Shown here: positions 8,674-9,112 of the stretch, piece by piece
How positions within the stretch are numbered: position 1 is the first letter of the stretch
How the letters are laid out: the number at the start of each line of letters is the position of its first letter
IMG/VR virus record: IMGVR_UViG_2529292919_000018
DNA: 44,108 nt
From: a virus
Taxonomy: Duplodnaviria > Heunggongvirae > Uroviricota > Caudoviricetes
Strand: one strand, 5' to 3'
Translations under genes and position numbers: made by a program
Notes under the pieces: model-generated
What the model was told of the DNA's origin: nothing
The model's database searches: none
What the model saw: only the letters and a program-made list of their open reading frames with translations

Positions 8674-9039
8674 ATTAAAGAGCATTAGTTCAGATGTGAA
8701 TTGACATTGTGTGGCACAGGGTTGGGCTAGCGTGGGGGTTTGCTTTGTGTAAGAAACGGATGCTCTGCAAATTACTACTAATGCTTAATGTTAGTCTGAT
8801 CTGCTCCCCGATGATTAATACACCGCTATGTTAGTAATGTCTGTAGATCGCTGTGTGTTGCATCCATCGGTTGACCCCACAGTCCAAACCAGACTGTCAG
8901 CTTTGATTCGATTCTATCTACTCAACCTGTCAGGTAATGTCTGAGCTAATACACAGAGTACGGCTATCGCGAACTTTAAGCTAGGTATCTGATACGCACC
9001 GTTCACTTGGTCGTACTTCTTGCACTGACTAGCTATCGT

Positions 9040-9112
9040 GCGCAGTTATTTATAGGTAATCTCCAGTGTATAATTTTCCAACTTATGGGAGATTGTAAAA
9101 CAGGAGGAATAT
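9040..9112 (+). promoter_or_regulatory. Putative promoter (-10 TATAAT at 9069-9074) and strong RBS (AGGAGG 9102-9107) for the 280-aa gene
   Basis: Consensus -10 hexamer and consensus SD 5-6 nt before ATG 9113; -35 weak/uncertain. Confidence 0.4.

Follow-up and report, generated by a model that had tools for sequence, protein, structure and literature searches.

Inverted repeats frame the variable Z (fun) region of P2-like phages, between the tail genes G and FI, and three short GenBank entries of 2004 (P2-EC30, P2-EC46 and P2-EC58; AJ512676, AJ512680 and AJ512683) annotate them as 'left inverted repeat' and 'right inverted repeat'. A further copy of this ~85-bp repeat lies in a gap without long open reading frames (ORFs), positions 8690–9112 of the 44,108-nucleotide stretch of DNA analysed here (the window), which is a lambdoid prophage of Escherichia coli O127:H6 E2348/69 (100% identity to NC_011601.1). 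The gap is placed between a frameshifted DUF1627/lygF pseudogene, which follows the replication genes, and a gene encoding a 280-aa DUF5677 protein, and the repeat in it behaves elsewhere as one of the terminal inverted repeats (TIRs) of small cargo elements. The GenBank features of 113 bp (left) and 91 bp (right) coincide with matches of our profile of the repeat, which carries the 'right inverted repeat' label in AJ512680 and AJ512683, and a search of a phage collection returned P2 and its relatives. In P2 itself the left copy comes directly after the stop codon of gene G and the right copy stands between fun(Z) and the pF promoter, with flanks (AATAAGT and AATCAGG) that match at 5 of 7 positions.

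The repeats of the P2-like Z regions and that of the window belong to the same sequence family, and the block of DNA that holds the window copy derives from such a region. However, the P2-like repeats are paired, whereas the window copy is solo, truncated and set in a lambdoid prophage beside replication genes. As a feature of the window it is an ordinary fossil: one more copy of a repeat known from P2-like phages, next to a remnant of an insertion sequence (IS). The work behind the Z-region entries, by Nilsson, Karlsson and Haggard-Ljungquist in Mol Biol Evol in 2004, reportedly proposes site-specific recombination, to go by its title. In the literature searched, which did not cover that article, no description of the repeat by its sequence, by its properties or as a transposon end was found, and among the RefSeq, PLSDB and phage-genome records inspected only the three Z-region entries annotate the repeat. 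Rousset et al. 2022 (PMC9122126) state that it is unknown how genes are exchanged at the P2 hotspots.

Among other described systems, the family resembles the non-autonomous transposons (MITEs (miniature inverted-repeat transposable elements) and the like, Tn3-derived inverted-repeat miniature elements (TIMEs) and 'transporter IS'), which likewise combine TIRs, a target duplication and passenger genes with the lack of a transposase of their own. It differs from them in its long ends of ~85 bp with internal repeats, its very low copy number and its defence-dominated cargo, and from the Tn3-derived elements also in a duplication of 7 bp instead of 5 bp; it has no known parental autonomous element. 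The DDE transposons of the Mu, Tn7 and Tn552 type share with it TGT...ACA termini, ends of ~80–120 bp and several repeated transposase-binding motifs. Tn552 has been reported with duplications of 6–7 bp and Tn7 also inserts just downstream of a gene, but Mu and Tn7 duplicate 5 bp, unlike the 7 bp seen here, and no gene of the TnsB, MuA or p480 type is linked to the family. The TGTATT...CTTGA of the repeat resembles what we take to be the left end of Mu, with no further sequence similarity. Integron attC cassettes are alike in placing a conserved, imperfectly palindromic element of ~60–140 bp directly 3' of diverse genes that are promoter-poor or self-contained. In contrast to integrons, each unit of the TIR elements has its repeat twice, in inverted orientation, the target duplications vary and the insertion sites are scattered, and neither an integron integrase nor attI nor a cassette array accompanies them.

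Composition of the gap upstream of the DUF5677 gene

We regard the gap as probably a pile-up of mobile-DNA remnants, among them a TIR of transposase-less cargo elements, and not as an RNA gene; its ~420 bp would be non-coding because of this origin. The features that make it up and the gene that follows it, all on the + strand, are these.

8605–8750, +: lygF/DUF1627 gene tail from the lambdoid backbone, decayed (BLAST homology)
8797–8842, +: left TIR of an ISSen4-like element (IS3 family) with the adjoining ~30 nt (sequence identity and flank divergence)
8851–8882, +: possible right-end remnant of an IS3-family element, tentative (short partial matches)
8880–8953, +: solo right-hand TIR of the P2 'Z-region' cargo family, profile positions 12–85 of 85 (nhmmer, E=1.3e-15)
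8954–9112, +: upstream region of the DUF5677 gene (read from the sequence)
9113–9955, +: DUF5677 gene, 280 aa (Pfam PF18928, E=3.3e-9)

At the left side of the gap the sequence is 81–85% identical (~8605–8760) to the LygF coding sequence of phages mEp460_ev081, Evi and Tritos, and RefSeq annotates a pseudogene immediately before it (8399–8601, 'DUF1627, frameshifted, missing C-terminus'). Because of this homology to the interior of a gene, the first ~60 nt of the gap (to ~8750) are a decayed coding tail and not a leader. A reading of the sequence alone, made without database searches (the sequence-only reading), had described the whole gap as an AT-rich leader upstream of the 280-aa gene. The gap is indeed free of ORFs of 60 aa or more on both strands (the longest are of 46, 43, 41 and 38 aa), but the term leader does not apply to the decayed tail, and the stretch is AT-rich only in a relative sense, with a GC content of 43.3%, where the window as a whole has 49.3% and the downstream gene 34.9%. 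The TTGACA hexamer is present where it had been placed (8701–8706), without a matching −10 element. The repeated motif was also confirmed, as two exact copies of GTAATGTCTG (8834–8843 and 8934–8943); these two copies belong to unrelated parts, the IS remnant and the transposon end, and a third exact copy is found in the 44-kb window. When up to one mismatch is allowed the motif has 7 matches in place of the 2.4 expected, and 2 of 100 shuffled sequences reached seven.

The IS remnant begins with TGA(C/T)CTG, as expected of an IS3-family TIR, and is 89–94% identical over 8797–8842 to the left end of an IS found in phages mEp234 and PhiR12_5, where the flanking sequences diverge exactly at this TGAYCTG (TGACCTG) and orfA of the IS begins ~26 nt past the match. 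The gene adjoining this end is named 'IS3-like element ISSen4 family transposase' by the PGAP annotation, which places the likeness with ISSen4 (IS3 family, IS407 group). The same 47-nt end occurs in thousands of copies on plasmids and in up to 20 copies per E. coli genome; the window holds one. Similarity to the IS stops after these 47 nt, and no transposase orfA or orfB goes with the end, no ORF in 8690–9112 being longer than 46 aa. A search of the window for a complete IS, or for the right inverted repeat of the IS, gave neither. The candidate for a right end that comes next (8851–8882) contains 22 nt with 95% identity to the last part of an ORF with an rve domain, which adjoins the cargo-family TIR in Klebsiella variicola pKP187, and matches the subterminal right end of ISSen4 at 17 of 20 positions, but the terminal 13 nt differ, so that this end of the ISSen4 comparison is doubtful.

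The third component is the TIR itself. Its outer terminus (...GAGCTAATACA, 8943–8953, reading TGT on the other strand) is preserved, and its inner ~11 positions are replaced by IS-derived sequence. A profile built from 86 copies of the repeat (nhmmer) recovered it as the single significant copy in the 44-kb window. Its inverted partner was not found there, a weak fragment on the − strand (~10581–10622) not being significant (E=0.068 in 600 nt); in relatives of the block that stand in a P2 context (contigs L002 and L049) the partner is present. Being solo and without its inner 11 positions the window TIR cannot be mobile, and we infer that it is an immobile fossil.

Only the remaining ~160 bp are specific to the DUF5677 gene. 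They contain a perfect TATAAT (9069–9074), a Shine-Dalgarno sequence (AGGAGG, 9102–9107) ahead of the ATG and an inverted repeat (ATCTCC/GGGAGAT, 9059–9094), and align to the allele found in P2 context with 72–89% identity, depending on the sub-segment, and an indel of 19–20 nt. To judge from these motifs, this part most likely holds the DUF5677 promoter, the gene being transcribed, as we would predict, from the TATAAT at 9069–9074.

The repeat as the end of paired cargo elements

The repeat is widely distributed, with copies on plasmids, integrative islands, chromosomes and prophages, lambdoid ones included. Its ~75-nt core (~8880–8953 in the window) matches unannotated DNA in plasmids of Klebsiella, Citrobacter, Salmonella and Yersinia, 56 plasmids in all by BLAST. 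A scan with the pattern of invariant columns gave 35 genome loci, from more than 15 named genera of Enterobacterales, one Acinetobacter and unclassified metagenome-assembled genomes, together with 64 IMG/VR prophage contigs and 116 metagenome stretches; the exact pattern match listed as L001 is the window. With a consensus query, copies were found in 1219 of 5426 complete E. coli genomes (1–3 per genome); all lie on the chromosome, and almost none is annotated. An alignment of the 86 distinct copies covers ~85 nt with the layout GTCCGCT...CTGTCAG...CTGTCAG...GTCTGAGCTAATACA. Each repeat contains two CTG-N-CAG palindromes ~41 bp apart. Two subtypes, alike in their termini and CTGTCAG boxes, can be told apart by a perfect 10-bp stem inside the repeat (GGCACAGAGC...GCTCTGTGCC), which one has and the other lacks.

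At most loci the profile search located two copies in inverted orientation ('−' on the left and '+' on the right), separated by 0.2–7.5 kb, with outer ends that read TGTATTAGCTCAGAC... and termini of the form TGT...ACA. The sequences bordering 66 distinct full pairs were compared, and direct duplications of 7 bp were seen, perfect in 36 pairs and with 6 of 7 positions in a further 11; the same comparison shifted by 7 nt, used as a control, gave none in 66. Among the 31 different sequences that are duplicated, 29 have T at position 3 and all 31 have A at position 5, and the centre is TAA (17 sites), TTA (7), TCA (3) or TGA (2). Read on one of the two strands, this T-N-A centre is therefore a stop codon in most cases. 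On its 3' side the TIR mostly borders a backbone gene that runs towards it (int, P2 gene A, Q, tail S, tail-fibre assembly, DinI or carB), directly at that gene's stop codon, and its 5' side faces accessory genes.

These accessory genes are mostly anti-phage, and include ThsB/TIR (Thoeris-like), AbiV, AbiTii, DUF2971, PD-T7-1 and a retron-type reverse transcriptase, among others. In the large elements the cargo is a set of Bil-like E1/E2/JAB genes, a nuclease module associated with pPIWI, a CBASS operon or, instead, metabolic genes.

The sites without an element could also be recognised. When one element and one copy of the duplication were removed in silico from locus L009, a stop codon followed by an intact terminator was restored, and the reconstructed 500-bp site is continuous in 12 related plasmids of ~38–53 kb (97.8–99.8% identity in 11 of them, 89.5% in the twelfth). 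The reconstructed site of locus L007 is likewise continuous in many plasmids, mostly of Salmonella and Citrobacter. Inverted pairs, target duplications and empty sites are what transposition characteristically leaves. Neither the ~90 paired elements nor the surroundings of the copies inspected yielded a transposase for the family, in a hunt that took in the interiors of the largest elements, a 53-kb stretch of Klebsiella plasmid around a copy bordering pco/sil and two E. coli islands, and the only transposases met with in the elements or their neighbourhoods were nested ones of the IS110, IS66 and IS3 families; the elements would therefore be non-autonomous.

We tentatively propose, with slightly less than even confidence, that the 85-bp repeat marks an unclassified family of non-autonomous transposons mobilised in trans. 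Such elements would move by DDE-type cut-and-paste or replicative transposition, a putative transposase being supplied in trans and binding the terminus and the two subterminal ATCTGAC(A/G)GT repeats. The conserved TIRs may, in addition, supply the homology for swapping of cargo at a fixed site. In Mixta/Pantoea, four loci (L018, L086, L019 and L066) have elements of 1134–1796 bp at the same TTTCATG/CATGAAA site, which suggests that their cargo was replaced by recombination between the conserved repeats.

Several further arrangements of the repeat were observed. Mini-elements without cargo, of ~232–240 bp, consist of the left repeat, an 86-bp IS scar and the right repeat (L002, 5919–6158; pairs of 232 bp also in L137, L166, L184 and L185) and recur in P2-like prophages and gut metagenomes. 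In both subtypes the end of the same IS110-family element (...TTTTCACACAGCCTG) is joined to one and the same internal position of the repeat (L012 at ~2990, where it adjoins an ISEsa2 transposase, L068 at ~9975 and L083 at ~35), and L005, L037, L039 and the window show an IS3-family end in the same arrangement. Site-specific ISs appear to favour the repeat as a target. In K. quasipneumoniae pG4584 (L112, 2036–2112) ISEsa2 interrupts a copy that faces a region with the pco/sil cluster for copper and silver resistance, and no partner copy was found within 53 kb.

Weighing the alternative explanations

The sequence-only reading had suggested, next to a regulatory function or a recombination scar, that the gap might encode a structured non-coding RNA. 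Such an RNA (an antitoxin, a retron-like RNA or a defence-associated guide) would work with the DUF5677 protein, and some observations agree with it: the segment 8843–8950 is 94% identical between the window and the other cassette allele, about as well conserved as the gene, a stem near the start codon is altered on both sides between the alleles (CTCC/GGAG versus CTTC/GAAG), and certain other loci have a Rho-independent terminator behind the repeat, on its own strand. Those terminators, however, belong to the interrupted host site, and the scans for structure were negative. Rfam, at gathering thresholds and up to E=10, matched nothing in 8300–11100 save three eukaryotic families at chance level (E≥5.5), the folding z-scores of 8796–9112 are unremarkable (−0.98, +0.83 and +0.30, as RNA and as single-stranded DNA of both strands), and RNAalifold on the 86 core homologues returned 3 invariant pairs at −0.67 kcal/mol without covariation. 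Related islands do keep the segment, though as DNA of a mobile element: its core is found in either orientation, in the form of paired ends bordered by target duplications, and next to cargo of unrelated kinds. A DUF5677 homologue in another context (53% identical, the one retrievable relative on which the distant comparison of leaders rests) lacks such a sequence upstream, including the last ~160 bp that the two alleles share. We therefore consider an RNA gene very unlikely, and it is the scar that survives from the earlier suggestions, made up of an IS end, one TIR and a block (8796–10545) imported from a P2-type hotspot.

It is also improbable, if somewhat less so, that the whole 420 bp serve as promoter and 5' untranslated leader of DUF5677. 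The TATAAT and the Shine-Dalgarno sequence fit this, as does the fact that the block travels with DUF5677 between P2-like and lambdoid contexts. On the other side, the gene-specific DNA is limited to the last ~160 bp, the preceding 8797–8953 are IS and transposon-end DNA that occurs beside hundreds of unrelated genes, and the TIR has no consistent outward promoter role, since its normal neighbour is the 3' end of a gene that runs towards it. A regulatory reading can thus plausibly hold for the final ~160 bp only. That the core might be a single-strand promoter of the Frpo/ssi type was considered in view of a copy in the leading region of the IncFII plasmid Salmonella pIncFII.1, upstream of ssb and psiB, and of another near traM in Yersinia. 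This was rejected, and we give it practically no chance: neither strand forms the ~300-nt hairpin expected of such promoters (z from −0.7 to +0.8 in window and plasmid), the Salmonella copy forms the right end of a TIR pair that spans 3.5 kb and is flanked by a perfect duplication of AATAACG, and most copies reside in prophages and chromosomes. Two smaller candidates for the core were also discarded. A small ORF or gene 3' end, in the frame ending at a conserved TAA, would have ~28 codons, is without a start and is broken in several copies; for a sigma-70 or sigma-54 promoter no convincing hexamers were seen by eye, and the scan called none in the window copy.

A different question is whether the paired repeats are transposon ends at all, or instead the sites of a site-specific recombinase or invertase at which integration, exchange or flipping takes place. 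The inverted arrangement, the two CTG-N-CAG palindromes of each repeat and a 7-bp stagger, typical of tyrosine recombinases, would suit such an enzyme; a tyrosine recombinase of 228 aa, the size of FimB/FimE, stands beside DUF5677 in the P2 version of the block, and related genomes have differing cargo at the same site. Nevertheless, the 7-bp flanks vary from site to site (31 distinct sequences) and relatives that are unoccupied have a single copy of the site, so the flanks are a target duplication and not a shared crossover core. Most elements, moreover, carry no recombinase, and the insertion sites are dozens of unrelated loci. On balance, recombinase sites are unlikely, with a chance that we put as small yet a little above that of the long leader.

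The account of the gap as mobile-DNA remnants and of the repeat as a transposon end has to face several observations. No transposase was seen within the elements or beside the copies inspected, and we infer both the mobilising enzyme and its mechanism from the structure of the ends and the duplications only. About 19 of the 66 pairs have no recognisable duplication, and the copy number of 1–3 per genome is low, unlike that of typical MITEs. The sharing of one insertion site by several loci with differing cargo (TTTCATG/CATGAAA) fits recombination between repeats equally well, and site-specific recombination is what the title of Nilsson et al. 2004 proposes. Within the window, the IS right-end remnant at 8851–8882 is only partly convincing, and the candidate DUF5677 promoter has a poor −35 element and was not called by the consensus scan, which gave no + strand promoter anywhere in 8400–9300. 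Finally, in the window and in IHE3034 DUF5677 is placed on the outer side of the adjacent repeat, and its relation to this repeat is for that reason secondary.

The block shared with P2-like prophages, its neighbours and the meaning of the repeat family

The transposon end and the DUF5677 gene are part of a larger segment, which is followed by a defence system. The corresponding features are listed here.

8796–10545, +: block common to the P2-like Z region between tail genes G and FI (identity to P2-like prophages)
10061–10581: tyrosine recombinase pseudogene (intact in relatives in P2 context)
10994–12367: PtuA of a Septu pair, 457 aa (E=2e-165)
12345–12989: PtuB of the same pair, HNH protein, 214 aa (E=1e-83)

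The block contains the IS scar, the TIR, DUF5677 and the small tyrosine recombinase, and is ~89.5% (89.5–89.9%) identical to IHE3034 and to the IMG/VR contigs L049, L054 and L108, the shared part reaching 10165 in IHE3034 and 10545 in the fuller versions. In L049 the order is G, left repeat, IS scar, an internal repeat in right-hand orientation, DUF5677, the 228-aa recombinase, a 129-aa ORF, right repeat and FI, and of this the window keeps only the segment from the left end of the IS to the middle of the recombinase. On the left, the block begins precisely where the IS has its outer end (8796/8797), a coincidence that suggests a rearrangement mediated by the IS or directed by its end. According to this proposal, the block 8796–10545 would have been carried from a P2-type Z region to the lambdoid replication–nin junction with the IS end as breakpoint.

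The recombinase pseudogene lies in a second and larger ORF-poor stretch (9956–10993) just downstream of DUF5677; the intact version of the same small recombinase in L049 occupies 3598–4284, adjoining DUF5677. A 35-nt inverted repeat (9026–9060 and 10764–10798, 77% complementary) brackets DUF5677 and the pseudogene, possibly by chance; considered as a pair of sites for the recombinase it was rejected, since it is not conserved in L049. PADLOC gives no match for the DUF5677 gene. With a complete Septu system 1 kb downstream of this gene, the replication–nin junction is a small defence island. Further on, a sok match (13134–13300, 112 bits in Rfam) and hokD (14404–14559) are more than 1 kb apart with an IS481-family transposase gene (~13244–14332, − strand) between them, so that the hok/sok locus looks split by an IS insertion. 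The IS481-family element was also examined as a source of the TIR ends and discarded, as it has no related repeats. Rfam matches elsewhere in the window are, besides sok, the DicF RNA (4534–4585, − strand) and a cluster of three tRNAs (19106–19352, + strand) upstream of the late region, typical lambdoid features that are unrelated to the gap.

For the prophage, these results remove a candidate RNA gene and leave DUF5677 with an ordinary short upstream region behind the fossil ends of two mobile elements, at a junction which illustrates how a lambdoid prophage received, beside its Septu system, a cassette of a P2-type hotspot. The repeat family is of more interest than its copy in the window. 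About one complete E. coli genome in five has it, the fun(Z) gene of P2 itself stands between two of its repeats, and its TIR pairs behave as the ends of small, defence-loaded cargo transposons. As a profile or a pattern, the repeat offers a simple sequence handle for finding new cargo genes. Since insertion takes place at T-N-A, usually a stop codon, the gene at the site keeps its stop, and the family represents a testable route by which defence genes may hop between phage, plasmid and chromosomal hotspots while the neighbouring gene is left intact. If the repeat does mark a family of transposons mobilised in trans, this would imply an undiscovered transposase acting in trans and would provide a concrete mechanism for the turnover of the P2 Z/fun region and similar hotspots.

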